Assembly (NCBI GenBank): GCA_964603685.1
Contig: CAZRWF010000005.1
Location: 2,721-66,720 of the forward strand
Direction: 5' to 3'
Length of the DNA stretch: 64,000 bases
From: an uncultured Chitinophagaceae bacterium
Lineage (GTDB): Bacteria; Bacteroidota; Ignavibacteria; UBA10030; UBA8401
Part shown: one piece after another, positions 39,685 to 62,194 of the stretch
How the letters are laid out: each line of letters opens with the position of its first letter
How positions within the stretch are numbered: the first letter of the stretch is position 1
Notes under the pieces: generated by a model
What the model saw: the letters and a program-made list of their open reading frames with translations, nothing else
Database searches by the model: none
Told to the model about the DNA's origin: nothing
Translations under genes and position numbers: made by a program

Positions 39685-42600
39685 CTATTTCACCCGCTCG
39701 AATTCCACGCGCCGGTTTTTTGCTCTCCCCTCTTCCGTTTTGTTGGAGGCGATCGGATTGGCCGGTCCAAATCCTTGCGGCATCAACCGCCGCGATTCCA
39801 CCCCTTTGCTGACGAGATACGCCGCAACCTCTTTGGCGCGGTTCAAAGACATCCGACGATTCGCATTCGCGTTTCCGGTATTGTCGGTGTACCCGTTAAT
39901 CTGAATGGCGATGTCGGGATTGGCTTTCAGCATCTCGGCAATATTATCCAACACCACTTTCGATTCCGCCGTCAACGTTGCTTTCGACAGTTCGAAGATG
40001 ATCCCCTCCATCACGATCGGACCGGAGGAGGTTTCCCGGAGGGACTCAAGCAACTTCACCGCTTCGACCACCTTCTCCACCACATTGATGCTCGGCCGTT
40101 CGATATCCACAAATGTCGTTTCAAGCGGAACGGCTGCGGAATTGATGTTCGCTTTGACGATAATCGTCGCATCGGCGGAACGCACGATCGCGGTCTCGTC
40201 GAATTCATTGGTGATAGTCGCGTATGTTCTCTTTTTGAAGACCGTGTCCCGCGCCGCCGATTGCAACCGGGCGGAATAGGTGATGACGTTGGCACCCGAA
40301 CGAAGTAGGCCTCCGAGATCCATCGACGCGATGCGGAAAAATTCCAGTTGCATTGCATTCTGTTTTTCGGAGGAGGAGATCGCCATAGACCGGATGCGGA
40401 ACGAAAGATTGCGCGAAGGGACCGGAATTCCGTTCACAAAGAACGAACGATCGTTGACGATAAAATTGGAGGGCAACGTGTCGATGATCTTTGCTTCGGT
40501 GATTTTTTTGTTCGGATCGATATACAGCGCCGTTTTAAAGAAAAGATCGTCTCCCACGGTGACCGTGACGGAATCAGAGAGGTGATTGGAAACGCGCGGG
40601 TCGGAGGCCGACGTGTTGAGTTCCGATGTTTCGATCCGGTTCTTCATCGTATCCAATACGATGTTGTCGGTATAGACATGCCCTCCTTCCACGATAATGC
40701 TGTCCGTCGACATCACCGCAACGGAAGAAGCGGAAGTGAGTACGGTCCGCACTTTCGGGAACGATGTTACAATAGCGGAATAGGAGAGTTTTCCGAAATA
40801 GACAGCATTCCCTTTTCCGATGTTCCAACGAATATTGTTCCCCGACATGACCGGATTAATCCGCTTGCCGTTGAACAACGCGCTGTTTGGAATAAGCGTC
40901 AACCGTTCATGAAGATGATCTTCGATGGTCACTTTCTCCACAGGGCGGTTTCCCGAATACGCAAAGGCAATGAACATTTTGACGGTATCCACTCTGATCT
41001 TCCGGAGCGTATCGTCATAGAGATATTTCGGAATGGCCTGCCGCACCGCGGTTACTTTGTTTACTTTGGCGACCGAATGTTTAATTGAATCGGAGACAGA
41101 CCGGCGGACATAAAAATTGGCCCGAGCAATGCCGCTTTCGGTTACCCGAACGAATCGCGACGTGGGGTCTTTGGCAAACGCATTGTTTCCGGCAATCAGC
41201 CGGTCGTTGTTCGGCAGCGTCCGCTCGTTCACGCGCAACACATGTTGGCCCGGTTTCACTTCCGGCAGAGAAAACTTACCGTCATCGCCGGTGATGATCT
41301 TCGTTCCGTCTTCCATCCACAATTCCACATCTTTAATCCCGGTCTCCCCCTTGTCCTGATACGCATTCCGGTTGTCGTCGTAAAACACTTTGCCGATGAT
41401 CAATCCTTTTTCCGTAAACACACCCGGGCGGACGGTCACCTGCCATTGGGACGGTGAGGATACGAGCGTCGTTCCGAGACCGGCCACAGCACTGGCATAC
41501 GCCGTGTTGACACCTTCACTTTCCATGGCATCGGCACCGATGGCGAGTTGATATACCAGAAGTGACTGTTTCGACGAAGGGATCGTGTCGGTCATGTTCC
41601 ACCGGAGCTGGTTGTTGACCGGATCGATTACCGGTTCCACGGGCTTACCATTATACCGGGCGGAATTTTTCACATACTGAAATGCGTACGGAAGCAGATC
41701 ATAGATTCCTGTGTTGCGCAGGAATTGCGGACTGGAATTCGAAACGACGATTTGATACGTGACGATATCGCCGATCTCCGTTACTTTTTTATTGCCGGTT
41801 TTGACAATCTTCAGGAATGAGGCAATGTTCGGATTTTCATTGATACGCAACGTCGTATCCTTTCGGGCAAGGATCGAATCTCCCTTCATGACATACGCGT
41901 GCGACGTAATGGCGACATCGTTTCTCAGGGCGAAGTCCGTCACCAGTTTTAACGAAACGGAGTCCGTTACCCCCGGAGCAAGCGAACCAAGATAGATTGT
42001 GGAGACGCTGTCGACGATTTTTGTGGAATCCAGCGAGGATTTCGCCAGTGAGATTCCGCTCAGTCCGGCAGAAAAGAGCGTATCGACGATCCTGATACCG
42101 CGAATGCTGTCGGTCCCGGTATTGGAAAAACGGAATACATGGCGGATGCTATCCCCGGCGATGATCGTGTCGCGCGGTACCGTGAAGGAATTGGAGAATA
42201 CCAGATTCCCTTTGGAACGGATCGTGGTTGTGAGCGTGCTGTTCGCGGATAACAGATGCGACGAATACCAGAACCGGTTCATGATCCGCGTGCTGTCGGG
42301 TATGTTGGATGACACAATAAATCGTATCGTGACGGAATCCGACGTTAACGTTTTCAGAGTATCTTTCGTCCACCGAACGACACGGGTTACGGAATCGTAC
42401 AACGCCGGTGTGAAATTTCCGGACGACGCCGACACGAACCGTACGAACGGGGACAACGTATCCGTAACGGCGACGGTACGATGTTCCACGTTGCCGGTAT
42501 TGACAATCCGCGCCGACACCGTCACCGTATCCCCCGCCGAGGCGGTCGATGGACCGGCCGCCGTAAAACTCACCGTCGAATCGAGCGTGATCTGCAGATT

Positions 42601-44424
42601 CAGATTAACGGTCACCGTTCCGGAAGAGGTGTCGCTGACAAACGTAAATCCGGTAAAATTCGGGAACGCAGCACTATCCACCGAAATAACGTACCGCGCC
42701 GGACGCAGCCCTTCAAACTTAAACCGGCCGTTGGCATCCGTTTTTTGCTGTTGCACGCGGGTCAGGAGATTTTGCCGCTGCAATGTCCGAATGTTCGGAC
42801 TCCGGACGTTCGATGGGGCCAACGAATCCAGAAACACCGTAACACTTTCTGCCGGCACCGGAGTGCCGGATATTTTGTATTCGATCCTTCCGGAAATCAC
42901 GTTCGGAATAACAATGGGCGGCAGCGGAAATTTCGTCGGGTCCACTTCGGTCTGGGTTTTGACCGAATCTCCGAATTTATCCAGTACGACAATCTCCAAA
43001 AGATATTTCGTGATATCCTTATTGAGCGCGATGAAAAATTTACCGTCGCTCTTCGTTGTGTCGACGCCGACAATGCTGTTGCGCGCATCGGTCACGCGGG
43101 CGATGGCGCCTTGCAACGGGACTTTGTTAATACCGCTGACGACGGCACCGGTAACGGCACCGGGATAAATATAAATGTTTGCGGTATCGCTTTTGGTTCC
43201 GAGAGAGGGAGTTCCGGCTACCGCCGTAATTCGGGAGCGGAGAATTTCATTCTGCACGTTCACCGTTCGAAATCGAACGGAAGCCGATCCGTTCTGTACG
43301 GTTGTTGGGAATGTCGTTGCACCGTTATGAAAAGTACCGATCGTCGCCGTCAATGTTATCGGTGTTCCGTCGGGCAATATTGTTCCCAGAGAGTCTTTCA
43401 CCGTTACCGAAACGAGAGAGCTGTCCTTGTTCACTTGTCCAAATACAAATTCCGGCTGCGGAACAATGGCCACTGATTTCGGAAGGATGGGGACGATTCG
43501 GGTTATCGTCGTCGATCGATCCCCTTCCGGATCATTGGTTGAAAAAGTGCGTACGGAATGGAGAAGGTCCACATGTCCGATGTTGACCGCCGTGCGAATA
43601 TCAACGGTGAAGGAACGTGAGGAGAAAGCAGGAACAGATCCGATCGACCATTTTACGGTGCGTTGATTGTTCGACACACTGTCCGGTGTGATGGACGATG
43701 CAAAATAACTGCCGTGTGTTGAGATAGAATCATACACCACCGTTCCCGTTGCGGGAACATTCCCCTGATTCACCACCGTGACGGTGTACCGCAACACTCT
43801 CCCCGAACCGACAACCGGTTGTTCGGGGACCAAAGAAATCGCGATCCGCGGAAACATGCTGATGACAAACGTTTTTGCCGTTGACCGGATTGAATTCTCC
43901 CACGAAATATCCGCGTTCATGGTCAGTTGTGTGTTCACCGCAAGGTTGCTGTCGACAATAACTTTTACCCGGACGGTATCGCTTCTTCCGGGGGGAACGT
44001 TGAAAACGCGCCACGTGACCGTCGATCCGGAGATCACACCGCCGGTCGATCCGGGTAGGAACTTCATTCCCGCCGGCGGAAGAACACCTTCGATCAACGC
44101 CGTATCCGCCGTTTGATTTCCGACATTTCTATAGACCAAAGCAACGGCGAGCGTTTCTTTGCTGAAGACGAGCGAATCGGGATTGCCAAAGGAGATCTCA
44201 AAATTCGGCGCCTCCACAACAGTGAAGGTGACGATATTTGTCAGGACCGTATCACTCGGGAAGGACCGGTATTGAAAAACCGAACGGGCTTGGTTGGAGA
44301 TCGGAGTATTGGGGGCGGTTTGAGCCCGCAGGACGCCATCCGCGAACAATCCGATCAGCGCGATGGCGATCATCATCGTCGATCGGAATGTTGTTCTGAT
44401 GATATGTCGTACGGTGGCCGTCAT
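39685..44424 (-). CDS. 1579-aa secreted multi-domain protein: DUF11-type repeats, CarboxypepD_reg-like and SdrD B-like domains, C-terminal OmpA peptidoglycan-binding domain
   Basis: Signal peptide-like N-terminus. DUF11-type blocks (e.g. GDIVTYQIVVSNSSPQFLRNTGIYDLLPYAFQYVKNS). SdrD-B-like GKVFYDDNRNAYQDKGETGIKDVELWMEDGTKIITGDDGKFSL (about 41215-41400). OmpA_C block INGYTDNTGNANANRRMSLNRAKEVAAYL...NRRVEFERV (about 39688-40020). Confidence 0.75.
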   Translation of the reverse strand: MTATVRHIIRTTFRSTMMIAIALIGLFADGVLRAQTAPNTPISNQARSVFQYRSFPSDTVLTNIVTFTVVEAPNFEISFGNPDSLVFSKETLAVALVYRNVGNQTADTALIEGVLPPAGMKFLPGSTGGVISGSTVTWRVFNVPPGRSDTVRVKVIVDSNLAVNTQLTMNADISWENSIRSTAKTFVISMFPRIAISLVPEQPVVGSGRVLRYTVTVVNQGNVPATGTVVYDSISTHGSYFASSITPDSVSNNQRTVKWSIGSVPAFSSRSFTVDIRTAVNIGHVDLLHSVRTFSTNDPEGDRSTTITRIVPILPKSVAIVPQPEFVFGQVNKDSSLVSVTVKDSLGTILPDGTPITLTATIGTFHNGATTFPTTVQNGSASVRFRTVNVQNEILRSRITAVAGTPSLGTKSDTANIYIYPGAVTGAVVSGINKVPLQGAIARVTDARNSIVGVDTTKSDGKFFIALNKDITKYLLEIVVLDKFGDSVKTQTEVDPTKFPLPPIVIPNVISGRIEYKISGTPVPAESVTVFLDSLAPSNVRSPNIRTLQRQNLLTRVQQQKTDANGRFKFEGLRPARYVISVDSAAFPNFTGFTFVSDTSSGTVTVNLNLQITLDSTVSFTAAGPSTASAGDTVTVSARIVNTGNVEHRTVAVTDTLSPFVRFVSASSGNFTPALYDSVTRVVRWTKDTLKTLTSDSVTIRFIVSSNIPDSTRIMNRFWYSSHLLSANSTLTTTIRSKGNLVFSNSFTVPRDTIIAGDSIRHVFRFSNTGTDSIRGIRIVDTLFSAGLSGISLAKSSLDSTKIVDSVSTIYLGSLAPGVTDSVSLKLVTDFALRNDVAITSHAYVMKGDSILARKDTTLRINENPNIASFLKIVKTGNKKVTEIGDIVTYQIVVSNSSPQFLRNTGIYDLLPYAFQYVKNSARYNGKPVEPVIDPVNNQLRWNMTDTIPSSKQSLLVYQLAIGADAMESEGVNTAYASAVAGLGTTLVSSPSQWQVTVRPGVFTEKGLIIGKVFYDDNRNAYQDKGETGIKDVELWMEDGTKIITGDDGKFSLPEVKPGQHVLRVNERTLPNNDRLIAGNNAFAKDPTSRFVRVTESGIARANFYVRRSVSDSIKHSVAKVNKVTAVRQAIPKYLYDDTLRKIRVDTVKMFIAFAYSGNRPVEKVTIEDHLHERLTLIPNSALFNGKRINPVMSGNNIRWNIGKGNAVYFGKLSYSAIVTSFPKVRTVLTSASSVAVMSTDSIIVEGGHVYTDNIVLDTMKNRIETSELNTSASDPRVSNHLSDSVTVTVGDDLFFKTALYIDPNKKITEAKIIDTLPSNFIVNDRSFFVNGIPVPSRNLSFRIRSMAISSSEKQNAMQLEFFRIASMDLGGLLRSGANVITYSARLQSAARDTVFKKRTYATITNEFDETAIVRSADATIIVKANINSAAVPLETTFVDIERPSINVVEKVVEAVKLLESLRETSSGPIVMEGIIFELSKATLTAESKVVLDNIAEMLKANPDIAIQINGYTDNTGNANANRRMSLNRAKEVAAYLVSKGVESRRLMPQGFGPANPIASNKTEEGRAKNRRVEFERVK

Positions 44425-46094
44425 TGTATTTTTACCGAAAATTCAACCGTTCCGGAAGAATTTGCTGCCAGTGTGCCGATACTGACTGTAAGCATGGTGC
44501 GGTTTCCGGAAATGTTTTGGATAGATACGGACGGATGATTGTCCGCAACGGCGATCCCGTTTACTTTAATGCTGTTCACCACATAGGATGTCGACAACGG
44601 AGCGGTATCAATGACGGAAAAGTTTGTCACTGGAACGGATCCGATATTGACGAACCCGATCGTATAGGTCACCACACCGCCGGCCGGCTGGCTTCCGACC
44701 GGAAAAACGCTTTTGGTCATCTCCACCAGCGGTTCATTTACGGTGGTCACGACGGTTGCCGTATCTTTTTTCTGTCCATTTCCCGACGATGATGCGATGA
44801 CCGCAAGTGTGTCTCGAATTCCGACGGCGAACGAACGCGGAACGATGACCCGAGCGAAAATTCGCACACTGTCCCCGATCGCGACCGAATCTACATCCGC
44901 ACCAAAGGCACCGTTGGTATTGGTCAATTCCGGATCCCCGGCGTCGGGAAGCGCGTTGTTATTTCCATCCCGGAAAAATTTCCAGGCAAATCCCCGCGTT
45001 GACGTGTGCGACAATTCGATCACATCTTTGAACGAACCGACATTCCGGACCGAATACCGGTACCACGCCGTGTCTGCCGGTTCTTTGACAAGAGCGGATG
45101 AGGTGCAGACGATGTCGACGCCGTATTCCGGGGTACCGGAAACGGTCAATAGAACGGTGTTGCTGACGGTGTAATACGCATTATTGCCGACCGAATAATT
45201 GATGCCGAACGATGCCGGAATGACGGTGCCCGCGGAAATTCCGTTGTTGATCTGCACGGTCAAGGTGATCGTCACCGATTGACCGGCGGCAAGAGTGCCG
45301 ATATTCCAGGAGAACGGCGTCGACGATCCCGAGAACGTTCCGATCGTCGTCGTCCCCCCCACCAATGTGACCGCTCCATTCGGGGTGTGTTGAATCACCA
45401 GATTGGCCGCCGCTACCGATCCGGAATTGGTGAGGACATAGGTGTACGTTACATTTTGTCCGGCACCGGGGGTCGGGTTGTTGATTGTGACACCGGGATT
45501 CAGAGGATCGATCCCCGCCGTTTGTACGGTGGTCACGTATACGCCGGATACTGTACGGAGGGAATCGAACAAAGATTTTACGACAACAGTCGCACTGTCC
45601 TTTGCACCGTTTAACGTGACATCTTTCGGCACAGAGATCCGCACTACCGCCGCAAATTGAGCATCGGCAATCAGCGAAGGTGATTGTGTGATCGCGCCGG
45701 CCGCCGCTTCGGACGATTGCAGAATTCCGTCACTGTTAAGATCACGGAAAATTCTTGCCGTCCAACCGCGCGATGAGGCAACGGACAAACGGGCGGCATC
45801 CGTACCGTTTCCCGAATTGGTAATCACGACCGGATAATCTGCAGACGTGCTGTCGCTGGCTGTCGTCACGGAATTCGAGGGGGGTGAAATATTAAAGGAG
45901 CCCTTTTGAGCCACTGTGATCGTCAACGCGGCAGAATATACCGTATCGATAACCGCACCGCTGCGGGTGGAGAATGTGACGCGCGATCGGGATTGAATTA
46001 TTGTTCCTGCCGGAGTTCCTGCGGCAAATACTTCCCCGGCGAGCAGCACGAACATCAATGCGAATGCGGCGGTATGTTGTTTCGACGTTGTCAT
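44421..46094 (-). CDS. 557-aa secreted DUF11/CARDB-like repeat protein (paralog A)
   Basis: Signal peptide ...LLAGEVFA/AGTPAGT. Repeated beta-sandwich modules with the signature ITNSGNGTD...W...F.D.N.DG. C-terminal DUF11 module ends ...GTVEFSVKIQ. ATGA overlap with the downstream gene. Confidence 0.7.
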   Translation of the reverse strand: MTTSKQHTAAFALMFVLLAGEVFAAGTPAGTIIQSRSRVTFSTRSGAVIDTVYSAALTITVAQKGSFNISPPSNSVTTASDSTSADYPVVITNSGNGTDAARLSVASSRGWTARIFRDLNSDGILQSSEAAAGAITQSPSLIADAQFAAVVRISVPKDVTLNGAKDSATVVVKSLFDSLRTVSGVYVTTVQTAGIDPLNPGVTINNPTPGAGQNVTYTYVLTNSGSVAAANLVIQHTPNGAVTLVGGTTTIGTFSGSSTPFSWNIGTLAAGQSVTITLTVQINNGISAGTVIPASFGINYSVGNNAYYTVSNTVLLTVSGTPEYGVDIVCTSSALVKEPADTAWYRYSVRNVGSFKDVIELSHTSTRGFAWKFFRDGNNNALPDAGDPELTNTNGAFGADVDSVAIGDSVRIFARVIVPRSFAVGIRDTLAVIASSSGNGQKKDTATVVTTVNEPLVEMTKSVFPVGSQPAGGVVTYTIGFVNIGSVPVTNFSVIDTAPLSTSYVVNSIKVNGIAVADNHPSVSIQNISGNRTMLTVSIGTLAANSSGTVEFSVKIQ

Positions 46095-46116
46095 CGGAAT
46101 ACGATTGAGCGCTCCG

Positions 46117-47799
46117 TTAATTGATCGTTGCTTTATACGTTATCGTTCCGGCGGCCGATTGACCGGCGATTGATCCGATCGTCACCGTGATCCGTTTTTT
46201 CCCTTCGACCGTCGTCACCGATACTTCGTCGCCGTCCGCCGCATCGGTCTTCGCGACCCCACCCAGCGTGACGGAATTCGACACATAGGTCATATTCTCC
46301 GCCTCCGTTTCGGCAATCAGAACGTTGTATGCTTTACCGTGACCGGTATTTTGATATGTAACGGTAAATGTCATTTCCGATCCCGGAGGTTGATTCCCGG
46401 AAGGAAGGACGCTTCGGACCAGTACGATCGACGGTATATTGATCGTCGTGGTCGCATTGGCGCTTTGAAATTTGGACTGGTCGAACGACGACTTGACGGT
46501 GAATGTCGTCACATCCTGCGTTTGATCCCCAGAAACGAGCGGGACGATTAACCGGGCCAGCACTTTAACACTGTCGTATGCCGCAACGGAATCGACATCC
46601 ACACCGCCGGCCGCATTCGTGTTCGTCAGCGCCACATCGCCGGTATTCCACACGCCGTTACCGTTGACATCCTTAAAATACGTCCACGTATAACTTTTGG
46701 AGGAACTGTATTCCATTTCCAACACGTCTTTCGCATTGCCGATGTTCTTCACCGTGAAGGGATAATACAACGTGTCTTCCTGTTCCTTCGCTGCGGTAAC
46801 AACCAGCGGAGAAATTTCGACCCCTCGAATGACACCGACCGCAGCAGAGGGATTATTGGAATGGACGGTAAACGTCACACCGCCGACCGTATAGGTGACG
46901 GCAATCGTGTTGTTCAACACCGAACCGTTGGAAAGTCCGCTCAAAACCTGCAGTGTAATCGAGACCGTCACCGAACTTCCGGGATTGATCGTGCCGATGT
47001 TCCAGAGGATCGGATTGGAGGATGTATTCACCGTTCCCGAGGTTGAAGTCGCGGAGACAAAAGAGAATAATGATGTGTTGAACAAATCGCTGAACGACAC
47101 TCCCGTGGCCGCCACGCTGCCATTGTTGGTCACGGTCATCGTATACACAACATTATCACCCGGCGAAGGATTGGTGGGGGTGACGGACAATCCCGAACTG
47201 ACATTCGAAAAATTGGCCGTATTCACCGTCGTACGCGCCTGGGACGTATTGGTCTTGTTTCCGTCGAACTGCGATGTCGCGGTGATCACGGTGGTGTCGA
47301 CCTGTCCGTTCAACGACGCATCGCGCGGCGTGAAGATGCGGAGAAAGACTTTATAGGTCCCGTCCGCAGCGATTGCCGCTGTCTGCGTGACCGCTCCGGC
47401 ATTGATCTCCGATGTTTGTAGAATGCCGTCACCGTTGCTGTCCACATAGAAGGAACGTGACCAGGACTTGGACGAAACGGACGAAAGCGTAAACTGATCG
47501 CTGCCGTTTCCGGAGTTCGTGATTGTCACCGGGTATTCCGTAAACACGCTGTCCCGCGACGTTGTTTTCGCATTGGTGGCGGGGGAAATATTTACGGAAG
47601 CGATTTGGGCCACAACAAAGTTGATGTAATTCGAGTACACCGTATCGACGCGTGCGCCGCTGGCGGTCGAATACGTCACCTTCGATCGGGTTTGAATTTG
47701 CGTCCCCGCCGGCGTTCCGGCGGCCTGCAGAAAATGTATGCCGGCGAACACCAGCAAGCATCCCCAGATCCGCCAATGAGCGGTAGTCATGATTTTCAT
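46117..47799 (-). CDS. 560-aa secreted DUF11/CARDB-like repeat protein (paralog B)
   Basis: Colinear with paralog A and, by eye, roughly 40-45% identical over the first 150 mature residues (AAGTPAGTQIQTRSKVTYSTASGA...). C-terminal DUF11 module ends ...GTITYKATIN. Confidence 0.7.
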   Translation of the reverse strand: MKIMTTAHWRIWGCLLVFAGIHFLQAAGTPAGTQIQTRSKVTYSTASGARVDTVYSNYINFVVAQIASVNISPATNAKTTSRDSVFTEYPVTITNSGNGSDQFTLSSVSSKSWSRSFYVDSNGDGILQTSEINAGAVTQTAAIAADGTYKVFLRIFTPRDASLNGQVDTTVITATSQFDGNKTNTSQARTTVNTANFSNVSSGLSVTPTNPSPGDNVVYTMTVTNNGSVAATGVSFSDLFNTSLFSFVSATSTSGTVNTSSNPILWNIGTINPGSSVTVSITLQVLSGLSNGSVLNNTIAVTYTVGGVTFTVHSNNPSAAVGVIRGVEISPLVVTAAKEQEDTLYYPFTVKNIGNAKDVLEMEYSSSKSYTWTYFKDVNGNGVWNTGDVALTNTNAAGGVDVDSVAAYDSVKVLARLIVPLVSGDQTQDVTTFTVKSSFDQSKFQSANATTTINIPSIVLVRSVLPSGNQPPGSEMTFTVTYQNTGHGKAYNVLIAETEAENMTYVSNSVTLGGVAKTDAADGDEVSVTTVEGKKRITVTIGSIAGQSAAGTITYKATIN

Positions 47800-47823
47800 T
47801 GTTGACCCCCTTCAATAATTTCT

Positions 47824-48909
47824 TTATCGAACCACTGCTTTGAATGAAACAATCCCCTCTTCACCCGGGAGAATTTTTTTCGTGATTTTCCATTGAATCG
47901 AGATGACCGCCGATTGTTGCGGAGGTGTCACCGTCGACCGGACCACGGTAATCTCGCAATCCTCCCCTGCCGCGGAATTTTCCACGTACGTCATGTTTGC
48001 GGGGACATCATTGGTGATTGTCGCATCCTGTGCGAACGCCGTGCCGATGTTGTGGTAGAGAACGGAATAGGTAACCGTATCCCCCGGAAAGGGATTCATA
48101 CGATCGGCCGAATTGATCAACGCCAGCTCCGTTGTTTCTTTTTTGGAACTGTTCATCACCTCCAGATGCGAAGCTTGGATGGCCGATTTTTCAAAATTTT
48201 TCACCGTTGTCGCATTCACGCGGAAGGACAACACCTCGGTTTCCGCTCCGGCGGAAGAGACATTTTCGGACGACACCACAACGGTTTTTCCCGGTCCTTT
48301 TTGTTCTCCCGCTGCGGTCGTGACTGCCGTTCCGGCAATGCCGGAGATCAGCACAAACGGATAATCCGCCTTCCCCTTTTCCACCCGTGTCGTCAGCACT
48401 CCGTTTGCACCGACCGGGCGGAGATATCCGTCCCCGAACAGTGTGAGCATGGCGGAATACGTTTTGTTGGGAACAGATTTTACTTTCAGCGCAACGGTCA
48501 CCGTTTTCCCGAGCGGCATCGTTTCATCGGCAACGATATTGGATTCCCACGTAACGGTCACGGCATTTGCCCCTGTGCCGGAAGAGTACACTGCGGTTGT
48601 TTTCAGGCCGGTCGATTGGACTTTAGCTTTTGCCGCAAAATCTTTCGCCGTAACGGAAAGAATCGTCTTCTGCCCCTCGTTGAGCCGTAAAAAAACGAAC
48701 GATTGATCGGTGTTATTCGAAAGCCAGAATCCGAATGTCGATTCCTCTTTCGGATTTTTGACGGGCCGGACAACCGCAAAGGCGATCTTCCCGCTTTTCG
48801 TTTTACCCGGAGTATTCACTTGCAGCTGATAGTCATGCAGCTTCAATTGCGTACCTTGCGAAAACGCCAATGAGCTGACAATCAAACTCACGATGAGGAA
48901 TGTTTTCAT
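47824..48909 (-). CDS. 361-aa secreted protein: unique N-terminal about 255 aa plus a C-terminal DUF11 module
   Basis: Signal peptide MKTFLIVSLIVSSLAFSQG. C-terminal PFPGDTVTYSVLYHNIGTAFAQDATITNDVPANMTYVENS...GIVSFKAVVR. AGGAG 7 nt upstream. Confidence 0.65.
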   Translation of the reverse strand: MKTFLIVSLIVSSLAFSQGTQLKLHDYQLQVNTPGKTKSGKIAFAVVRPVKNPKEESTFGFWLSNNTDQSFVFLRLNEGQKTILSVTAKDFAAKAKVQSTGLKTTAVYSSGTGANAVTVTWESNIVADETMPLGKTVTVALKVKSVPNKTYSAMLTLFGDGYLRPVGANGVLTTRVEKGKADYPFVLISGIAGTAVTTAAGEQKGPGKTVVVSSENVSSAGAETEVLSFRVNATTVKNFEKSAIQASHLEVMNSSKKETTELALINSADRMNPFPGDTVTYSVLYHNIGTAFAQDATITNDVPANMTYVENSAAGEDCEITVVRSTVTPPQQSAVISIQWKITKKILPGEEGIVSFKAVVR

Positions 48910-48925
48910 TTCGATGCTCCTGCGA

Positions 48926-51900
48926 TTAGTTGACGATCGTTTTAAACTTTATTTGTTTGTATGATCCCGGTGACACCGTGGCAAACGTGACCGTGATGGT
49001 CGTTCCGGCAACGGTCACTTCGTCCCCATCCGAAGCATTCGTTTTTGCCGTACCGTTCACTTCGATCCCTTTGCCGACGTCGAATCCGTTCGCCAGAAAT
49101 GTGGTATTGGCGGGGATCGTATAGACCGCCGAGACCGATGTTGCGTTGGATGTACCGTTGTTACTGTACTTCAGCGTATAGACCAATGTGTCCCCGGGAA
49201 CAGGATTTTGATGACTGACCACATTGGTGTCGATGGAAATATTGGCAATGTTGGTGATCGCGATCGATGTCGAAACATCTTCCACGTTGGAACCGCCGAA
49301 ATCGATCTGCGCCGTATTGGCGATCGATTCCAACACATCCATCAGCGAATCGGTATTGGCGGTGAATGTCCGGGACGTGGATGCACCGCTCGCCAACGAG
49401 AAGGATGGCCATGTCACCGTACCTCCTACCAGACTGCCGTTTCCGTTGTTGACCCGCCCAGAAATATTGCCCCCGTTGCTGATGCTTCCGGACTTCAAAA
49501 TAAGGTTGTCATCGAGGGGATCGGTCACCACAATCGTCCCCTTGGTGACATTATACGGATTTGTGATCGATATAGTATAGAGCAAAGAATCCCCCGCGTG
49601 TGCGGTACCGCCGTTAATGTCGGACACGGTTTTGGACGAGACATTGGAACCGATGCCCCAATCCCCGACAATCGAAGAAGTAAGGCCTGATGATTCCACA
49701 TAGTTCGCCACGCTGTCAAAGGAGGTCGCGTTCCGATTTTGCCACGAAGTGCCGTATTGCCACAATTTCATTAATGTTTCATTCAAACTGTTCGCTTCAC
49801 TGTTTTCGTAATGCAGCCGCAGCGTGCTGGTCAATCCGCTGCCGCCGGTGATGGCGATGTTTACCGTCCTATCGACGGCGACAAATGTCGGCGAAGCAGG
49901 CGTTGCGGACGCGACCGTCATCGTCACCGAACTGGGAGGCGTACCGGCCGTGAACACTATGGTGGTATTCGGGCCTTCAAACGCGTACGGCGTAGATAAA
50001 GCGAATACATGCGTACGCGTGACCGTACCGAAAATTATTCCATTGCCGGTCCGGGTTCCGGTGATCGTCAACGTGTTGGCTCCGGTCGAAATCGTGCCGG
50101 AATTCATATCGACATTCACCGTTTGGATGTTTCCGGCAGCCGTTACGGTCGTGGCACTTTGCGTTTTATTCACCACAAGTTCATAAAATGTGGTAGCTCC
50201 GGTGATGGTCGATGCCGAACCGCCGGCAAACACAATTTTCGATGTAGCGGCGGCGAATGATCCGGTGGTGGTCCAATGGCCGTATACCGTATCGGTGGTC
50301 GCTCCTGCATTTAATGTGGTACCGGCTCCCACCGTTACATTTCCCATAATCCTCAACGCTCCGGCGATGGTTTTCGTCCCTCCCGTTGCCGTATGAAGAT
50401 TATTATAGAGAAAGGCAGGAATCGATTGTGCGCCGCTGCCGGAAAATTCGATCGTACTTCCGGAAACGACATATTCCCCTCCCGAAAATGTTGCTGCCGG
50501 AATAAATTGTTCGGCAATGCCGATCGTTCCGGAGGCGAGAGTCACCGCATTGGCGCCACGGCTGCCGCTCAGTTTTAGTGTATGGTACGCAAACGCCGGA
50601 ATGGTTTGCGCCCCTGTTCCGTTAAAATCGACGGCGCTGTTGGTGAAGGACAACGTTCCGCCGCTCATGGAAACTGCCAGCGTCCCGGCGATTCTCACCG
50701 TATCGCTCGGAGCAACGACAACAGTATTCCCCCCGCGTGCTCCGCTGATTGAAAGATGGTGATACGCAAACGGAACAATCGTCTGTGCTCCCGTTCCATT
50801 GTAAGCAATCTTGCTGCCGGAAACGATGTACCCGCCGGATGTGAAACTCGCCGCGATGTTCAAAGAATCGGCCACGCTGATCGTATCACCGGAAACCAAT
50901 GTCACGGAATTTGTCGTCCGTGCACCGCTGATGCGCAGCGAGTGGTAGGAAAACGCAGGAATCGTCTGTGCACCGGATCCGTTAAAGTCCACAATGCTCC
51001 CGTTCACGGCATACGATACCGATGAGGCGCTGATTGTCAGCGATCCCGCCACACCGATCGTATCGCTGTTCGCCATGGTGACCGTGTTGCCGCCGCGCGC
51101 ACCGCTGATTGTCATGTTGTGATAATCGAACGCCGGAACCGTTTGGGCACCCGCTCCGTTAAATTCGATCGTATTCCCCGTTCTCACATACGAACCGCCG
51201 GTAAACGTTGCGGTCGGAGTGAACGTACCGGAGACAGAAATTGTACCGTTCGGCAGCGTAACGGAATTATTTCCGCGGGCACCGCTGATTCCGAGATGGA
51301 CGTAGGAATTTGCTTTGACGGATTGTGCTCCGGTGCCGAAATAATTTACCGTATTGTTTGACGCAGAAGCCGTCAGCGTACCGGTCGCCAGCAACGTATC
51401 GCTCACGGCGAGCACGGCGCCGGAACCGTTTATCCAGGTCGATCCGGCGGCATCACCGATTAACCGTGCCATCGCAATGCTGCCGCTGTTCGTCACCGTA
51501 TTTCCGGATCCGATACGAACACGGTACAGCGTGTCGTTTGTCGCCGTCATCACTTTATTGGTTCCCGAGACGAACAATGTCGATGTGCCGGTCGTTTTTC
51601 CGCCGGTGCCGGAGAGCGTATCCTGGTCCGAATCGTTCCATCGAATCTGACCCGAACCGCTCCATTGTCCGCTGAACGCAAAATTGCCGTACAGATCAAG
51701 CCGGTATCCGCCGTCCGACAATTCCGCTCCTGAAGCGATCGACACGTTGGTGATTTCGCGGTCATCCACCAATGAAACGATGTGGGGACTTACGATAAAT
51801 ACTTTATCCCGCTTTTTGGGGACTTTGTTCAAATCCCATGTGGCGGCCGTCGACCAATTTCCGGTGACTACGGAAGTGTATGTTTCCGAACTCCCTTTTC

Positions 51901-54900
51901 CCACGGCAAATTCACTGAAGGAGGAGACGTTCATCGCCCGGACACTGGTGGATGTAATCACCCCGACTGTCGCGTCGCTCCACACGCCGTTATCTTTTTT
52001 AACGACCAGCATGTCCGAAAAATCACTGATACCGGCATCGACATCGCCGGCGATCCAATTGACCGTCATATTGTAGGAATCGAACACCGTGCCGTTATTG
52101 ATCACGATCCAATAACGGTTGACGGTGGAATCGGCAAACACACCGGCATTCGCAACATCCGGATGATCCCCGTTGACGGTTTTTGCCGTCACATATCCGG
52201 CGTTCGATACTGTTCCGAATGATATAGTCACGGGGAGATAATTCGAGGAGGAGCCGATCGCATACGTGATCGAGTCTGATCCCGGGGTGAAATACCGTTT
52301 TAAAAATCCGTTCACGTATCCGGACGTACGCGTCAACGATCCGGTGGAGGTGATCGTGACCGAATCCGACGTCGCCGTGACGATGCCGTTCGTCAACGTC
52401 AACACGCCGTTCACGATCATATCGTCCGACAACGTGATACCGTTCGACGTATTATTCAATTCCATATTTGTGAACGATCCCGTCCCCGCAATCCTGTGCT
52501 CACTCGTGCCGTTGAACAAAATTTTTCCCGCTCCGGTGTGCGCACCGTCGTTCTGGATGCTATCCTTCACGGTGATCGTAAAGCCGCCGTCGGCAAATGT
52601 CGCGCCGGCGCCGATGGTCAAATTCTGATCGACGATCATTCCGGCAGCGGCTGTTTTTGTTCCGCCGCCGCTGATGCGGAGACTATGATAGGTGTGTGCC
52701 GTGACCGTTTGTGTTCCACCTGAAGAATCATACCCGAATGTTCCGCCGACCAACGAAACCGTTCCGGCGACGGTAGGAAAGGCACCGCGTGTGCTGACGA
52801 TACCGCTGTATTGCGTAAAATTACCGCTCACCGACAACGTCTTTCCGGCAAGAATGGTCACACGCGCCGTATCGTTATGGACGATCAGATCGTTGCAGTA
52901 GGCGTCCACATTCACCGTGATCGTATCCTTACCGTCGAACACGATATGGTTCCCCGACGTCGGGACACTATGCGAACTCCAATTGTAATCATCTCCCCAG
53001 TTGTACGTTCCAGCCCCTTTCGTCCAATAAAACGTCAACGAAGCTTCACCGACCGCAAAATCGCCGAATCCCGTAATCCCGGTTGTTTTTGTACTGGTGG
53101 AATTTCGCACGTTGATCGTGGAAGGACTCCATGTGGTGTTGTACCGTTTTACGAAGAAGTACGCCGTATTGGCACCCGCATCGATATCGCCGGCAACAAA
53201 ATTGAACGTCGCATCATACGTACTGAAAGTCAATCCCGCACCGGATAATGTGTAGAACCGGTTCACATCTTTATATTCATCGAGTCCGGAATATTTCACC
53301 TGCGGATGATCCACCGCTGTTTGGCTCGCCATAACCGTTCCACCGACGCTCACCGATTGGAAAGTCAATTCGACGGGAGTGTAATTCGTCGCATCTCCGA
53401 CTTGGAACGTATAGGTTTGCGGGGACCCGCTCACTCCGATGGTCTTTTGGAGAAATCCGTGCACATGTCCCGCCGTTCGCGATGTCCCCGGGAAGACGGA
53501 ACAGGAAATAACGTTGCTGCCGGTGGTCATCACGCCGGACGTGAGGACCAAAATGCTGTCGACGGTGAAGTTCGCATTGACAGTTGCCCCGTTGATATCG
53601 TTCAGTTCGAGAATTCGGAACGAGCCGCCGCCGGAAATCTGATGCGCCGAGGAACCACCGGCGAGGAGAGTTTTCCCGGTACCGGAGCCGGTATTGACGG
53701 TGTTGTTGGAAATATTCCCTTTCACTGTGAGCGTATAGATACTGTCGCTCAGCGTCGCCCCGCTGATCGACAGATTGCCGTTCACCGTGGCATTTCCCGA
53801 CAACTTTTTCCAATTGCTTCCGCTGACGGTAAGATGTTGATAATAGGCCCAACCGTTGACGGTCTGCGGCGAAGTTCCGTTAAAATCGATCGTATTTCCG
53901 GTGAGGGTATGACCGGTCGCCGTTCCCGGCGTGAACACCGATGCGATCCCGACCGATGACGGAAATGTTTTGTTGAAATTACTCAGAATCAGATTTCCGT
54001 AATTTCCCGGCAATATATTCTGTCCGTTCGACCCTTTGCTATAATTCACCGTTCCGATCGCATCGCTGGAGATCGTTCCGGACGTCACTGCGGTCGCATT
54101 GGCGATATATAAGGTCATTGTACCGACACCCAAATTACCGGCAACGAGTTTCAACGAGTCGGTCACCGTCAACGAATCGGACATGTTAACACCGGCACTA
54201 TTGTTGATTTCCAACTTGTTCACCGTTCGTGCCGTGGGAGTGGTGGTGAACACCCCCGTGGATTGGAGCGCGCTTCCGGCAAAAATATAATTTGCCAGAC
54301 TGCTGTACGTCCGCGTTCCGGTCACCTGAACATTTCCGGTTGCACCGGCGGAGGTGATGCCGTCAACGGACGACGATTCGAGCGTGCCGTTCACCAAAAG
54401 GGTGAACGATCCGCCGCCGCTCAATACACTGGAACCGGCGAATGCGAGCCAGGAACCGCTGTGCACACGGTAATTGACCGTATTGGAGACGGTCCCTCCG
54501 GACGTGTATACTTGACGGGAAGTTCCGTTAAAGACGATGGTGCCGGACCCGGTACTCGTTTCGGTGATCACTCCGGATGTATGCGTAAAATTCCCTCCGA
54601 CTTTCAAACTATCCACCGAAGCGGAACCGCTCAGATTCAACGAGTCGCCGGACATCAGAACGCTCCCGGAAACCGTCAAATGGACGGCAGCCGTGGACGT
54701 GGTGACAAACCGCAATGTGCTGCCGGTTCCGCGCACGACGAGACTGTCGCCAATCGTCACCGTGTACGCCGTCGCTCCGGTCTGTTTCATTAGCACTTTG
54801 CTTGTTCCCTCCACTTTAAAACTTCCGCCGATGGTCTTGGATGCGGCCGTATTATTGTTGATCAGCAATTGCTGTCCGTTGGTGTTCAACACCTCAAAAT

Positions 54901-57900
54901 TTCCGTTCACCGTTACCGGATTTCCCGCCAGCGCAATCACGGCGCTTTGCGCGGCATTGTTCCAGACGAAATTTCCGAACGTCTGCGCAAGACTCGTCGG
55001 TACGGTATTGGTCGTACCGGTGATCTCCACCGTTGAATTCGCATTCCACGTGGTGGTCATTCCGACATTGATCGCACTGCCATTCACGTCATGGATATAC
55101 TTCCCGCCGCTCATATACACCGCCGAGGGTCCGCCGTTGACGCTGAATGTTCCGGCATCCCATTTCACCGTTCCATACACGGTCAGATCCGTACCGGCAC
55201 CATTCCGAATTTGCAGTGTGCCGCCCGTTCCGATCACCAACGTCCCCCCTTCTTCCACCACAATCTGGTCCTGTCCGTTCGTCACACCGGAAAGATTGGT
55301 GGTGACCGTCACCGTATGCCCGTTTCGAATCGTAATTTGCCCGCTGGCCAGCACCGGCGAAGAGACGGCGTTCACCCAATTCGTTCCGTCGAAGCGTTCC
55401 CAGACATTGGTGAAATCATTCCATGTCCCGGATCCTTTGGAGCGAAAAGCGTTGTTCGCATCGCGCAATCCGATGATATAGATACCCAAGGAGTCGATCC
55501 CGAGCGCTTGATTGGTCGTCGTAGTTCGTGTTCCGGCCGTTGTACTATCCCAGAACGAACCATTATACCAGTTCATCCGGAATGTGGCTGATCCTGCTAT
55601 ATCACAATCACCTGCCACATAGGTAAGAGTTAGGTTGTATCCGCTCGCCGTGTTATAGACAAGATCGGAATATCGGGTCTGCCAATAGCGATTGACATTA
55701 TCCGCTGGATTGACGAACGACGTTGCGGATTCCGGATGCTCTTCGGCGACTGTGGAGACGGTCAACGTTCCGGCAACAGAAACGGAGGCAAAAACGAATT
55801 GTGCCGGCGTATAATTATTGCCTGTTCCAATCTCGTACGTAACGGTGACATTCGATCCGGTTCCGACAGATTTTTTCAACCATCCGGTAACATGTCCTGA
55901 GTTCCGCGAAACTGTTCCTGATGACGAAATAATGACGGTATCGGACGCATTGGTGATGTTACCGTTGAGCAATCGTAACGTTCCGTTGATCGTCATATTA
56001 CCTGTCAGTGTGATCCCGTTGGCGTTGTTCACTTTCAGATTGGTAAAGGATCCTCCGCCGCTGATGCTTTGAGCAGTTGATCCGGACAGATCGAGATAAT
56101 TCGTTCCGTTCTGCGTTCCATTATTGATCACATTACCCAAAACGCGCATCGTGTCGGCACTCGAGACGGTCAGGGTTACGGAACCACCGATCGTCAATGT
56201 TCCGGTGACGGTATCGGCACCGGATTGTTGGGTTTTTGTTCCGGAAGTACTGAGGGTAAGATTATTATAGAGGAACGAAGGAATATTTTGCGCTCCCGAA
56301 CCGTTAAAATCCATTGTATTGCCGGTGATAGTATGTCCGGCGGCTGAACCGGAAGTAAAGACGTTCGCAACCCCGACAACTCCTGCGGGAAGAATTTTCG
56401 TAAAATTACTGAATGTTAAATTGCCGTAGTTCATCGCCAGCACGGTTTGACCATTGCTGCTTTGATTATAATTGATCGTTCCGGTGGCAGCACTGGTGAC
56501 CGTTCCGCCGGATGAAACGTTACCATTAAGCGTGAGCGTATTGGTTTGGATATCCATCGTTCCGGAAAGCACGGCGAACGAATCCGAAACGGTGACGCTG
56601 TTCTGAAGTGTGAGCGTACCGGAAGATTTGCTCACGGTCAATTTATTGAATGTTTCACCCGATGGGTCGATCACCGATTGAGCACCCGTTCCGTTGAACG
56701 TTACTTTTCCCGCACCGGGGGTGAACGTTTGACTGTTGTTTTCCCAATGCCGCGCGACGCCAATGTCCAATCCGTTCGCGTTCAGTGTTCCGGCAGTGAT
56801 GGTGAGATCGTTCAAGACCGTCAATCCGTTCGTGATCAGTTGCGCCGTCGCATTCGAGCTGTTGACGACAAAATTATAGACAGGAATGGAAACGTTCACT
56901 CTCATCGTTTGCGCCGCCGGAGTCAAACCGGTGTATCCTATTTGAACCGTTCCCCCGGTTACCGAATAGCTCGTAAAGCCCGACAACACAAATCCCAGAT
57001 CTTCGGCACCGGTTCCTCCTTCTTTTTTCACGATTATCGTACCGCCGCTCATAACAAAATTGGATCCGGCGAGACTGATGTTAAACGGAGCGTAGGTGGC
57101 GGACGTACTTCCCGAATCGGCCACGATCATCGTGCCGCCGGTCATCGTCAAATCGGTGATGACGTACGCATTGTTCGGAATAAATCCGCCGCGCACCAGA
57201 ACTGTGCCGCCGTTGATCGTGAAGGCGCCGCCGGACGAGATCAAATTGTGTCCGGTGTTGTTTCCGATCGTGACCGTACCGGCCTGAACGCGAAATTCAC
57301 CGGCAACCGTCAGACTCCCTCCCGTTGTGGATAAAGATGCCGAGGCATGATTGACGCGGATCCCTCCGCTCGAAGGAATCGAAGCGGCGGCGGTGAACGG
57401 TGTTACCGACGCACCCGTCGCCAGATTGAACGTTCCGTTCGTCAAGGTCAAAAAATTCGTCGTCGAAACCGAAAAATTCGTCGCAAAAATATCCAAAATA
57501 TTCGAGCGGGACGTACCCATATTCAATGTCATCAAATAGAATCGGGTGGAATCGCCGTTGCCGTTGACGGTCTGTGTCCCATTTTTATTGAAGGTCACGG
57601 CACACCGGCTGTCCGCATCGGTCGCCATGACGAACCGTCCGCTGTTGGCAATGTTGCCGGAAACCGTCAGCGTATGTGACGAGGTGTTCGAAACGCCGTT
57701 CACGCGAAAGACGGCGCCGGCATTCACCGTCACGTTGCCGATCACCGTGATGCTGCGCGCGGTGTTGTCGTCCCCGATTAACAGCGTTCCGCTGGCCCCC
57801 TGACCGACGGTGAGACTATTCACCGTCACAGTCGAATCGATCACAATCACGGTTCCGTCCGCAATGGTCGCGTTGTCCGAAATTCCCGGAACCACACTGG

Positions 57901-62000: not shown

Positions 62001-62194
62001 CCGGAATCGACGGCCGTACCGTTCATCCACAACACGACCTTCGTCCCCGGGGCGGCAGAGATGATCACCGCTTGGCGCGTCATCATGCTGACCTCGTTCT
62101 GCGCGGGCGTTACGATCTGCAGCCGTTGAGCGAACGAAACGCTCGCAGCGGCGATCAGAATCAAAAGGTGATATGTAAGATGTCGGAGTTTCAC
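59057..62194 (-). CDS. 1045-aa putative outer-membrane beta-barrel protein with N-terminal Ig-like (Big_1-type) domains; GTG start
   Basis: Signal peptide MKLRHLTYHLLILIAAASVSFAQ. Big_1-like ADGRTTSSFEAIVKDKFGVIIPGMYHVTLTS. About 800 aa of alternating amphipathic, aromatic-capped strands (e.g. FYLLRAEYDLRWNSFDVAAEYRIL, NLRFAVGYNFVG, GPFLSVRAKF). Confidence 0.55.
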   Translation of the reverse strand: MKLRHLTYHLLILIAAASVSFAQRLQIVTPAQNEVSMMTRQAVIISAAPGTKVVLWMNGTAVDSGTVRPDGVHDFLNIAVEQGPVTFAVVAHGLFPETDTVRMHVAGEPHAIDIVSAANAFVADGRTTSSFEAIVKDKFGVIIPGMYHVTLTSDTAGIVATDVDPNQDGIQVRIDSGKVRFGIQSPSASLVSTIAASWGNVSAAQEIEFTTPIVPLMIVGSADAEGSLLSASGNLTGIKNRSAIDDGFHSEGRLAFYGRGTVMEKYLLTASFDNQRRQKDRLFRDLDPDVLYSIYGDNSRVDYTAQTSNPFFLKLELNRSYLMFGDFNTAFGQNELARYDRTFTGISGHYESRTGKADVFATVTDRKVVQDEIRGQGISGYYFLGVSNVVPGSEKIRIETRDKRHNEVIVNRAEKSRFGDYEIDYVQGTLFFKQPVNSIDQAGNPVYIVVSYESQSGFPTNYVTGVQAEQRILKGWTIGATAVTEERMPTNYTVLGVYTRYSYADRLQTNVEVAHGSDVSNSGAAWKIELGGAPIDRMQVKSYFRKVESGFVNQTAGAGGAAELGSTKYGVGGVYDGLFETKLMADFYSQQQTSGNASVNVHSITGGAERKISSFATIALRAENLRYESARMDTALVDTKQSTLINAKTTVRANDRINLTGEYEQSISSSAKEQITPSSAAIGAEYRVTDDITLSAQQRFYIGSGSSTIFGVGSELGYGTTMTGRYEIGNGINGKRNQASIGLKNTTKLSEEVTANAAFERTRALDRQLAEAKTNDNDALSLGLEYLPKESYKATIKGEYAKNTQAVRKNLSFAGDIRLANDFTVIDKFTYYVEQRIAPQTPSSTFSDGVLSAQQIGTPAGSGTLSKFDNAIGIAYRPTEMDWLNAIGKYEKRIERNGVVMPNTSSSADIVSLHTFIEPVFGLEIGTKYALKYATDEAYGLSASAVTDFYLLRAEYDLRWNSFDVAAEYRILSSRIAGQANSQSAKHGYSAEIGNVVFENLRFAVGYNFVGTEDKDLVGRDYQSAGPFLSVRAKFTEKILNYFHK

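Follow-up and report, generated by a model that had tools for sequence, protein, structure and literature searches.

The domain formerly called DUF11 is now named CLIPPER; it is a CnaA-like stalk domain in which an Asp catalyses the formation of an intramolecular Lys-Asn isopeptide bond (PDB 9IFR; PMC12617251). In the BsaA/TasA family (10.1101/2024.11.04.621531) and in archaeal threads (PMC9715654), a subunit takes up the N-terminal donor strand of its neighbour, after which an intermolecular Asn-Lys isopeptide bond forms spontaneously, with the recipient acid as catalyst. In this study, we analyzed a stretch of 64,000 nucleotides (the window) from an uncultured Chitinophagaceae bacterium of the GTDB lineage Ignavibacteria (assembly GCA_964603685.1, contig CAZRWF010000005.1), which carries a single operon of seven close-packed minus-strand genes, g577, g1045, g3368, g361, g560, g557 and g1579 (Table 1; all positions are in window numbering). 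Five of the products end in a truncated CLIPPER domain, and the mature N-termini of products of the same operon are homologous to the strands that these domains lack. Our analyses suggested that the halves probably meet between subunits, which would make the operon a source of fibres built by donor-strand complementation.

A sequence-only reading of the window had reported a shared stretch at the extreme C-termini of five proteins, and all five stretches were found to be the ends of minus-strand open reading frames (ORFs), namely g557, g560, g361, g3368 and g577. The motifs it had quoted are present as well, that is PGDxVTYT..N.G, N(M/T)(T/S)Y(V/L)xNS and a final strand running directly into the stop codon, and AKT(D/N)A(A/S)DGDEV(S/T)V is common to two proteins, g560 and g3368. 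Pairwise identity among these modules of ~105 amino acids (aa) is only 19-34%; leave-one-out profiles, in which four modules were used to find the fifth among the window's 284 ORFs, gave E = 7e-10 to 3.5e-26, and at the sequence level their homology was confirmed to be far beyond chance. The N-terminal parts, said to be unrelated, are unrelated only for g361 and g3368, whereas g557, g560 and g577 are whole-length paralogues: g557 and g560 share 40% identity across the full length (E = 2e-117), and g577 aligned with g560 over ~525 residues at 26% identity (E = 3e-17). Against the Pfam model PF01345 (DUF11; gathering score 24.6 bits), single modules gave E = 6.7e-8 to 5.9e-4, with g560 (34.9 bits), g361 (33.3 bits) and g3368 (29.3 bits) above gathering and g557 (23.0 bits) and g577 (20.6 bits) slightly under it, and TIGR01451 was passed or nearly passed by all five. 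Internal DUF11 copies are present in these same proteins, so the module is not a distinct domain type. A profile of the five modules searched against 1.84 billion representatives matched 25,034 cluster representatives, and the best 150 matches were giant proteins with 11-44 internal repeats each. Since the ranking is led by such giant multi-repeat DUF11 proteins, the module is generic DUF11 and a terminal subfamily was not separable by this search; the hidden Markov model proposed earlier thus bore out the homology but isolated no terminal subfamily, as generic matches dominate. Likewise, the earlier view of DUF11 as a generic repeat agrees with the dominance of internal copies, but its premise is outdated, DUF11 now being CLIPPER with a known function.

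Both profile coverage and structure prediction indicated that the module is incomplete. In an AlphaFold2 (AF2) model of g560 (alignment of 70 sequences; predicted local distance difference test, pLDDT, 93.3), the internal DUF11 domain (residues 204-313) has nine strands, and the terminal one (458-559) has seven and then the stop, which falls short of a complete ~nine-strand CnaA-like sandwich in one chain. The terminal module ends at the equivalent of VSITLQV in the internal copy, and the next ~38 residues, LSGLSNGSVLNNTIAVTYTVGGVTFTVHSNNPSAAVGV, are missing. The modules alone covered DUF7619 only to position 45-100 of 133 and DUF7507 only to position 46-72 of 105. All five modules lack the strand with the Asn, and only g557 has the Lys, so that no module contains the isopeptide triad in one chain. 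These comparisons and the predicted structure showed the five modules to correspond to strands 1-7 of a CLIPPER (DUF11) CnaA-like domain, the chain stopping in the strand 7-8 loop. The window contains its own positive control for the split domain, the complete internal CLIPPER of g3368, which stands directly before the truncated terminal module, retains Lys, Asp and Asn of the triad and reaches 29 bits on TIGR04226. A Foldseek search of the g560 model against PDB gave generic multi-Ig matches only and was uninformative.

The truncation is also seen beyond the window. A genome-collection scan keyed on the N-terminal motif GTPAGT yielded 76 loci, to which four context loci were added; counts are quoted for 77 loci, and single loci are labelled L001 and so on. 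The lineages comprise Ignavibacteria-like genomes, Marinisomatota, Latescibacterota, Fidelibacterota, Krumholzibacteria, Acidobacteriota, a Chlorobiaceae genome and cultured Deinococcus. In these loci, cores matched through to the profile end came in two groups, 167 within 3 aa of the stop and 54 lying 140 aa or more upstream of it, with none between, and no protein ending in a complete domain was found in the 77 loci. In the 150 giant DUF11 proteins, none of the 199 full core matches ended at the C-terminus. The positional bias raised by the sequence-only reading therefore holds for the truncated form, which is strictly terminal, and fails for generic DUF11, which is overwhelmingly internal.

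The strands missing from the modules have counterparts at mature N-termini. The mature N-terminus A|(A/V)GTPAGTVIQSRSKVVYTT.SG...DTVYSN.VSFTVAQ is the most conserved stretch of the g560/g557 family, and in more distant members it reads GTVI(T/S)N(T/Q/Y)A..Y, the canonical DUF11 strand bearing the Asn. When a profile of these donor segments was iterated, it matched 166 mature N-termini together with 49 tails right behind internal DUF11 cores, one of the latter being g560 residues 290-315, SNGSVLNNTIAVTY.... This profile and the full-domain profile described below superseded a tail profile made from 40-aa segments after the cores of giant proteins, whose alignment was too noisy and which found only g1579 residues 38-73, weakly (5.5 bits). 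Chimeras of an acceptor module and the donor of the next gene aligned collinearly in MAFFT with contiguous internal domains of g1579, g3368, g560 and g557; the stop/start junction mapped to the loop between strands 7 and 8, and the chimeras' Lys, Asp and Asn were aligned with those of the complete internal g3368 domain.

Profile scores supported the same completion. Against DUF7619, the g557 acceptor alone gave 17.6 bits (positions 17-100) and 31.8 bits (17-131 of 133) with the g1579 donor, a gain also seen in the other three window chimeras, and position 103 of 105 in DUF7507 was reached only with a donor appended. An independent full-domain profile, for which 223 contiguous domains were taken from unrelated giant proteins, was applied to 106 adjacent pairs from the loci. 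The mean score was 61.9 bits for the acceptor alone, the match ending near position 95, and 70.8 bits with the true donor, the match ending near position 130, compared with 61.0 and 61.4 bits for shuffled and reversed donors (Wilcoxon p = 6e-19 for donor completion, the pairs being phylogenetically non-independent). A gain of >3 bits was obtained with the true donor in 75 of the 106 pairs and with a shuffled donor in 8, and g557 with g1579 rose from 71.6 to 85.4 bits. Moreover, the curated NCBIfam model TIGR04226, which describes a Lys-to-Asn isopeptide-forming fimbrial domain (cutoff 30), was matched end to end (4-122 of 123) by chimeras from L035 (32.1 bits), L044 (37.2 bits) and L004 (30.6 bits), all above the cutoff; the corresponding acceptors alone gave 27.9 bits, 29.9 bits and no match, and the reversed-donor controls 26.5 bits, 28.7 bits and no match. 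That the module is a truncated domain and that the N-termini are its missing strands is, in our judgement, very probable.

The distribution of the two halves among genes follows a regular pattern. The ORFs of the 77 loci fall into acceptor-only (106), donor+acceptor (83) and donor-only proteins, the last with OmpA and/or barrel. One gene order runs from an acceptor-only giant through an acceptor-only protein of ~360 aa and two donor+acceptor proteins (560 and 557) to the donor-only OmpA anchor, with the barrel upstream, and another runs from acceptor-only through donor+acceptor and donor-only anchor to barrel. Several phyla, including Latescibacterota, have anchor and barrel in one chain, in the order donor, stalk, OmpA and barrel (L035, 2451 aa; L040, L044, L042 and L068). 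A barrel and/or OmpA anchor was present in 34 of the 38 loci of at least 20 kb, which agrees with the co-occurrence of the truncated form with these partners that the sequence-only reading had expected. Acceptor-only ORFs are either giants or minimal proteins of 163-240 aa, in which a signal peptide and a short lead-in precede the truncated core; such minimal secreted proteins occur in L046, L061 and L062 (163-164 aa) and in L053, L057, L063 and L078 (178-238 aa), and could serve as caps or hold donor strands. The orphan acceptor-only and donor-only halves are hard to explain unless complementation takes place in trans.

The best reading of these data is a head-to-tail fibre formed by trans complementation of a split CLIPPER domain, which we regard as a probable, if not secure, interpretation. 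Once exported by Sec, a subunit would insert its N-terminal donor segment into the incomplete C-terminal domain of another, and a surface fibre would result. Being acceptor-only, g3368 and g361 could sit only at its distal end; g560, g557 and g577, with donor and acceptor, would make up the shaft; and the donor-only g1579 would terminate the fibre, its OmpA domain anchoring the assembly in peptidoglycan. A likely role for the giant barrel g1045 would be that of outer-membrane passage or collar, although its use as a conduit is speculative. The docking or polymerisation role suggested by the sequence-only reading is thereby supported, but the logic differs: the module would be one half of a split domain, the acceptor, rather than a tag on variable passengers, and the N-terminal donor had been missed.

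The residues at the junctions are patterned as well. At the position of the isopeptide Lys, acceptors have K (66), R (23), N (30) or others, the acid position is D or E in 110 of 189 acceptors, and at the Asn position donors have N (87), S (48) or T (15). At adjacent-gene junctions, an acceptor Lys is followed by a donor Asn in 26 cases and by Ser in nine, while acceptor Arg (23/23) and acceptor Asn (25/25) are always followed by Ser/Thr. Read along its genes, the window includes each matched type once, from g361 (Asn) to g560 (Thr), from g560 (Arg, Glu) to g557 (Ser) and from g557 (Lys, Asp) to g1579 (Asn), and outside the Ignavibacteria-type clusters nearly all junctions combine K/D with N. 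The co-occurrence of Lys/Asp and Asn at adjacent-gene junctions suggests an intermolecular isopeptide lock, in which the strand-1 Lys and the Asp/Glu of the acceptor would react spontaneously with the donor Asn, in the window at the base junction of g557 with g1579. Since orthology inflates these counts and there are exceptions to the pattern, we regard a covalent lock at such junctions as likely but unproven, and would put its chance at about even.

Several points weigh against the fibre or its lock. First, in the profile data, the PF01345 score was not raised by adding donors, the Ser/Thr-type window donors added only ~2 bits on the full-domain profile, and PDB 9IFR was not retrieved or aligned in the PDB sequence searches, in which the top match was a weak one to SpaC (E = 0.014). 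Second, in the residue data, orthology among the Ignavibacteria loci inflates the Lys/Asn association. The exceptions comprise the nine Lys to Ser junctions and eight from non-Lys to Asn, and 11 more Asn junctions were unscored, their Lys position lying in an alignment gap. The isopeptide-position Lys is lost in g361 and g3368. In L020-L025, the Lys/Asp acceptor is on the first donor+acceptor gene and a Ser donor follows, so that gene order appears not always to be the inferred assembly order. Third, the window has five acceptors but only four donors, no chaperone-like gene was found in the operon or its orthologues, and the fibre raises a topology problem, in that folded subunits would have to get through the outer membrane and the stalk could lie on either side of it.

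A rather unlikely alternative is that the module is an ordinary terminal stalk domain, complete and compact with seven strands as in CLIPPER_2, and that the N-terminal motif forms the first strands of the first domain, with no role in docking or polymerisation. Consistent with it, DUF11 is a generic stalk repeat both in the literature (PMC12617251) and in our five-module search, DUF7507 domains are typically seven-stranded according to the CLIPPER paper (PMC12617251), three of the five proteins are paralogous, and the PF01345 score was indifferent to the donor. Nevertheless, even the compact DUF7507 was only partly covered by the modules and was filled only with a donor, only true donors completed TIGR04226 and the independent full-domain profile, and acceptor Lys and Asp have been kept across phyla although they have no Asn partner in their chain. 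The 163-240-aa proteins with a truncated core, and the lack of complete-domain ends in the 77 loci, would also be left unexplained, and we prefer the split-domain fibre.

The suggestion of a sorting signal in the manner of the type IX secretion system C-terminal domain (T9SS CTD), LPXTG or PEP-CTERM found no support and was rejected. No NCBIfam match to such models (T9SS CTD, e.g., TIGR04183; LPXTG; PEP-CTERM) was obtained with the modules at E<=0.1 or with whole proteins at E<=0.01, and no sortase-, exosortase- or PorU-like gene was present in the operon or in the Pfam results for neighbouring genes. The chains end in ...TYKATIN, ...FSVKIQ, ...FKAVVR, ...FKTIVN and ...YTMKVN, that is, in a beta-strand with a polar last residue (N, Q or R) and with no hydrophobic or charged tail. 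We also considered the last strand as an outer-membrane protein beta-signal and dropped this reading because the last residue is N, Q or R and not aromatic.

The barrel g1045 itself belongs to no Pfam family. Its homologues of ~1000-1055 aa are all annotated as "hypothetical", only weak Big_1, Invasin_D3 and porin matches were obtained against Pfam, and PDB and Pfam searches with the family gave only Ig-like and weak porin-type matches. The AF2 model (pLDDT 78) has two N-terminal Ig-like domains and ~36-40 long strands, and Foldseek returned only matches of low template modelling (TM) score (<=0.21), to SprA, SlpA, MtrB, LptD and PapC/FimD. We predict a new giant outer-membrane barrel, in principle wide enough for folded Ig-like domains. 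An improbable rival to the fibre makes the module a recognition or sorting handle by which this barrel would select cargo for export, bound through the periplasmic Ig-like domains and perhaps then removed or left unpaired, much as the T9SS translocon recognises its CTD. In its favour, most loci with the module also have the barrel family, the barrel matches SprA in size and bears Ig-like domains on the periplasmic side, and the open edge of a beta-sandwich is a plausible docking surface. However, the known CTD, LPXTG and PEP-CTERM models are all unmatched, a protease or sortase is not present in the operon, g1579 and its orthologues have no module though they belong to the same system, and the donor homology and the Lys/Asn pairing are left unexplained; such a handle would be compatible with the fibre as an extra step and would not replace it.

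That the N-terminal strands of a chain complete its own C-terminal domain, giving closed, possibly self-crosslinked, loop-shaped monomers, is very improbable: donor and acceptor do share a polypeptide in 83 ORFs, and AF2 pLDDT values of 83-90 for the N-terminal strands of monomeric g560 imply packing against something, but the 106 acceptor-only ORFs (g3368 and g361 included) and the donor-only proteins (g1579 and the barrel fusions) are unable to complement themselves, the donor runs directly into the first strand of the next domain with four domains between donor and acceptor in g560, and g557 has a donor Ser for its own acceptor Lys while the Asn is on the product of the next gene.

For the proposed trans-complemented fibre, the further features of the operon are as follows. 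Intergenic gaps are 16-48 nt, and in one pair the start of g1579 and the stop of g557 overlap by 4 nt. The cluster was taken to end with g1579 because the housekeeping genes thrS, infC, rplT and pheST come downstream, 3' of it. The nearest relatives of the operon proteins are hypothetical proteins of "Bacteroidota/Ignavibacteriales" metagenome-assembled genomes. The C-terminus of g1579 scores above the PF00691 gathering score and thus qualifies as an OmpA-family peptidoglycan anchor. The orthologues of g577 have 634-647 aa and a signal peptide, and its missing N-terminus was inferred from those in L003 and L011; among these orthologues, a donor-like N-terminus was detected only in the 647-aa protein of L003. 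The N-terminus of g3368, presumed to be a tip or adhesin subunit, is not donor-like; that of g361 is conserved among orthologues (~360 aa), yet is not donor-like either, and g361 may be a second tip, an adaptor or chaperone-like.

Table 1. Features of the operon and of the split CLIPPER domains in the window.
Feature	Positions	Strand	Description
g577	62243-63976	minus	N-terminus cut by window end; first structural gene of operon; paralogue of g560 and g557
g577 acceptor module	62246-62575	minus	C-terminal truncated CLIPPER/DUF11
g1045	59057-62194	minus	Signal peptide, two Ig-like domains, predicted giant beta-barrel
g3368	48926-59032	minus	Giant secreted protein: fn3 domain, internal complete CLIPPER, terminal acceptor
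g3368 complete internal CLIPPER	49241-49660	minus	Residues ~3125-3264; Lys, Asp and Asn in one chain
g3368 acceptor module	48929-49243	minus	Truncated CLIPPER; Lys position = Thr
g361	47824-48909	minus	Small acceptor-only protein
g361 acceptor module	47827-48141	minus	Truncated CLIPPER; Asn at both Lys and acid positions
g560	46117-47799	minus	Signal peptide, donor strands, domain A, complete internal DUF11, domain A', truncated DUF11
g560 donor segment	47605-47721	minus	Mature N-terminus AGTPAGTQIQTRSKVTYSTASGARVDTVYSNYINFVVAQ; homologous to DUF11 strands 8-9; Asn position = Thr
g560 acceptor module	46120-46434	minus	Truncated CLIPPER, 7 strands in AF2; Lys position = Arg, acid = Glu
g557	44421-46094	minus	Donor+acceptor subunit, g560 paralogue
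g557 donor segment	45906-46022	minus	Mature N-terminus; Asn position = Ser
g557 acceptor module	44424-44738	minus	Truncated CLIPPER; strand-1 Lys (EMTKSV) and Asp (SVIDTAP) kept
g1579	39685-44424	minus	Donor-only: signal peptide, donor segment, DUF11/SdrD_B stalk, C-terminal OmpA-like peptidoglycan-binding domain
g1579 donor segment	44215-44325	minus	Mature N-terminus AQTAPNTPISNQARSVFQY...; canonical I-x-N-x-A Asn
g1579 OmpA-family domain	39712-39996	minus	PF00691, residues 1477-1571, 82.4 bits, E = 3.2e-23

Additional observations were made around the related clusters. HTH_17/MerR-like regulator genes were noted at L003 7081-7980 and L001 18316-19200: one stands ahead of the operon in a close relative, and another comes after the anchor gene and is itself followed by a 3124-aa ORF, which suggests tandem clusters. 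In L002 (11684-13391, a metagenome assembly), two ORFs of 209 and 356 aa stand in place of an intact gene for the 564-aa subunit, owing to a frameshift, to decay into a pseudogene or to an assembly error. A mobile-element-like stretch with Prim-Pol/VapE, Mu Gam, DNA ligase and DUF932 adjoins a paralogous cluster in L004 (13395-23051). Clusters of cultured Deinococcus species, D. yunweiensis (L065) among them (L059, L064-L067, L069, L071, L074-L076, L078 and L080), encode a donor-bearing protein of 665-790 aa whose C-terminus is by eye a truncated DUF11 core that the acceptor profile missed, together with a donor-only protein of ~1000 aa ending in ...SWRY, a barrel protein of 1610-1720 aa and an acceptor-only protein; these cultured species would be tractable experimental hosts. 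In the window itself, a 1409-aa secreted subtilase (Peptidase_S8) with FG-GAP repeats (17563-21792, minus strand) is by its position unrelated to the operon.

Compared with known fibres, the proposed assembly would share the plan of chaperone-usher pili (Fim/Pap), in which an incomplete Ig-like subunit is completed by the N-terminal extension of the next one, the tip has a groove and no donor, shaft subunits have both, the terminator has a donor only, and the operon includes an outer-membrane barrel. It differs in its fold, in the donation of two strands instead of one, in the possible covalent lock, in the absence of a PapD-like chaperone gene from the operon and its orthologues, and in its base, a peptidoglycan-binding OmpA protein. 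Unlike the usher (PF00577), g1045 has no Usher match and ~36-40 strands instead of 24, and PapC/FimD reached TM scores no higher than 0.21. Donor-strand insertion and lock would be shared with the BsaA/TasA family and archaeal threads, the donor supplying the Asn and the recipient the Lys and the acid (g557 and g1579, and most junctions outside the Ignavibacteria-type clusters, by the presence of the residues). Their fold is TasA/camelysin-like and their hosts are monoderm or archaeal, whereas here the fold is CnaA-like, the host is a diderm with a dedicated barrel and an OmpA anchor, and for its interface an isopeptide domain that already existed has been split. Of the TasA/camelysin fold there was only a chance-level Peptidase_M73 match (E = 0.013), and neither the cluster genes nor the scanned flanking genes yielded a SipW. 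Sortase-assembled Gram-positive pili (RrgB-type; TIGR04226) are likewise covalent fibres of isopeptide-domain subunits, and our chimeras pass the TIGR04226 cutoff; however, LPXTG, sortase and pilin-motif Lys are missing here, and the proposed bond would lie inside a reconstituted domain and not between a C-terminal Thr and Lys. Type V (Bacteroidota) pili are made from lipoprotein precursors with a C-terminal donor strand, their N-terminal strand being removed proteolytically, whereas the donor of this operon is N-terminal and no lipobox Cys was seen at the inferred signal-peptide cleavage sites (A-x-A then AGTPAGT, read by eye). With sorting tags (T9SS CTD, LPXTG, PEP-CTERM), the module shares the appearance of a constant ~100-aa element at the extreme C-terminus of several secreted proteins, but structurally it is a domain cut short, for which a matching partner piece exists. 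A paper on tafi was set aside as irrelevant, for it concerns DUF1102 and not DUF11, and no description of a split DUF11/CLIPPER fibre was found in literature searches, which covered subscription papers only partly.

As regards CLIPPER/DUF11 itself, the sequence family and the CnaA-like beta-sandwich are the same, and Lys (strand 1), Asp/Glu and Asn (strand 8) line up with the internal copy of g3368. Described domains are contiguous, mostly internal and bonded within one molecule, whereas in this operon a break in the strand 7-8 loop divides the domain between two polypeptides. The donor-strand-complemented fibre would be a new variant of its kind and possibly a new pilus class. The fullest claim, an undescribed class of diderm fibre distributed from Ignavibacteria to Deinococcus, with a split CnaA-type isopeptide domain that would ligate itself at Lys/Asp/Asn junctions without sortase or chaperone, a new barrel for passage and an OmpA base, is more tentative, and we put it somewhat below an even chance. 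If true, it would add a route of filament building to the chaperone-usher, type IV, type V, sortase-assembled, curli and TasA-like ones, the first from a split isopeptide domain, and would give a role to many "DUF11 domain-containing" hypothetical proteins of Ignavibacteria, Marinisomatota, Latescibacterota, Acidobacteriota and Deinococcus as well as to an unannotated family of giant barrels. The comparison extends to SpyTag/SpyCatcher, the engineered split of the CnaB2 domain of FbaB, in which a large part with the Lys and the acid ligates itself to a short partner strand. That pair is man-made and CnaB-based, whereas the operon would hold a natural split of the CnaA type serving polymerisation, and its junction types in the window (Lys/Asn, Arg/Ser and Asn/Thr) would, if the reading is true, be natural and mutually orthogonal pairs of the SpyTag/SpyCatcher kind.

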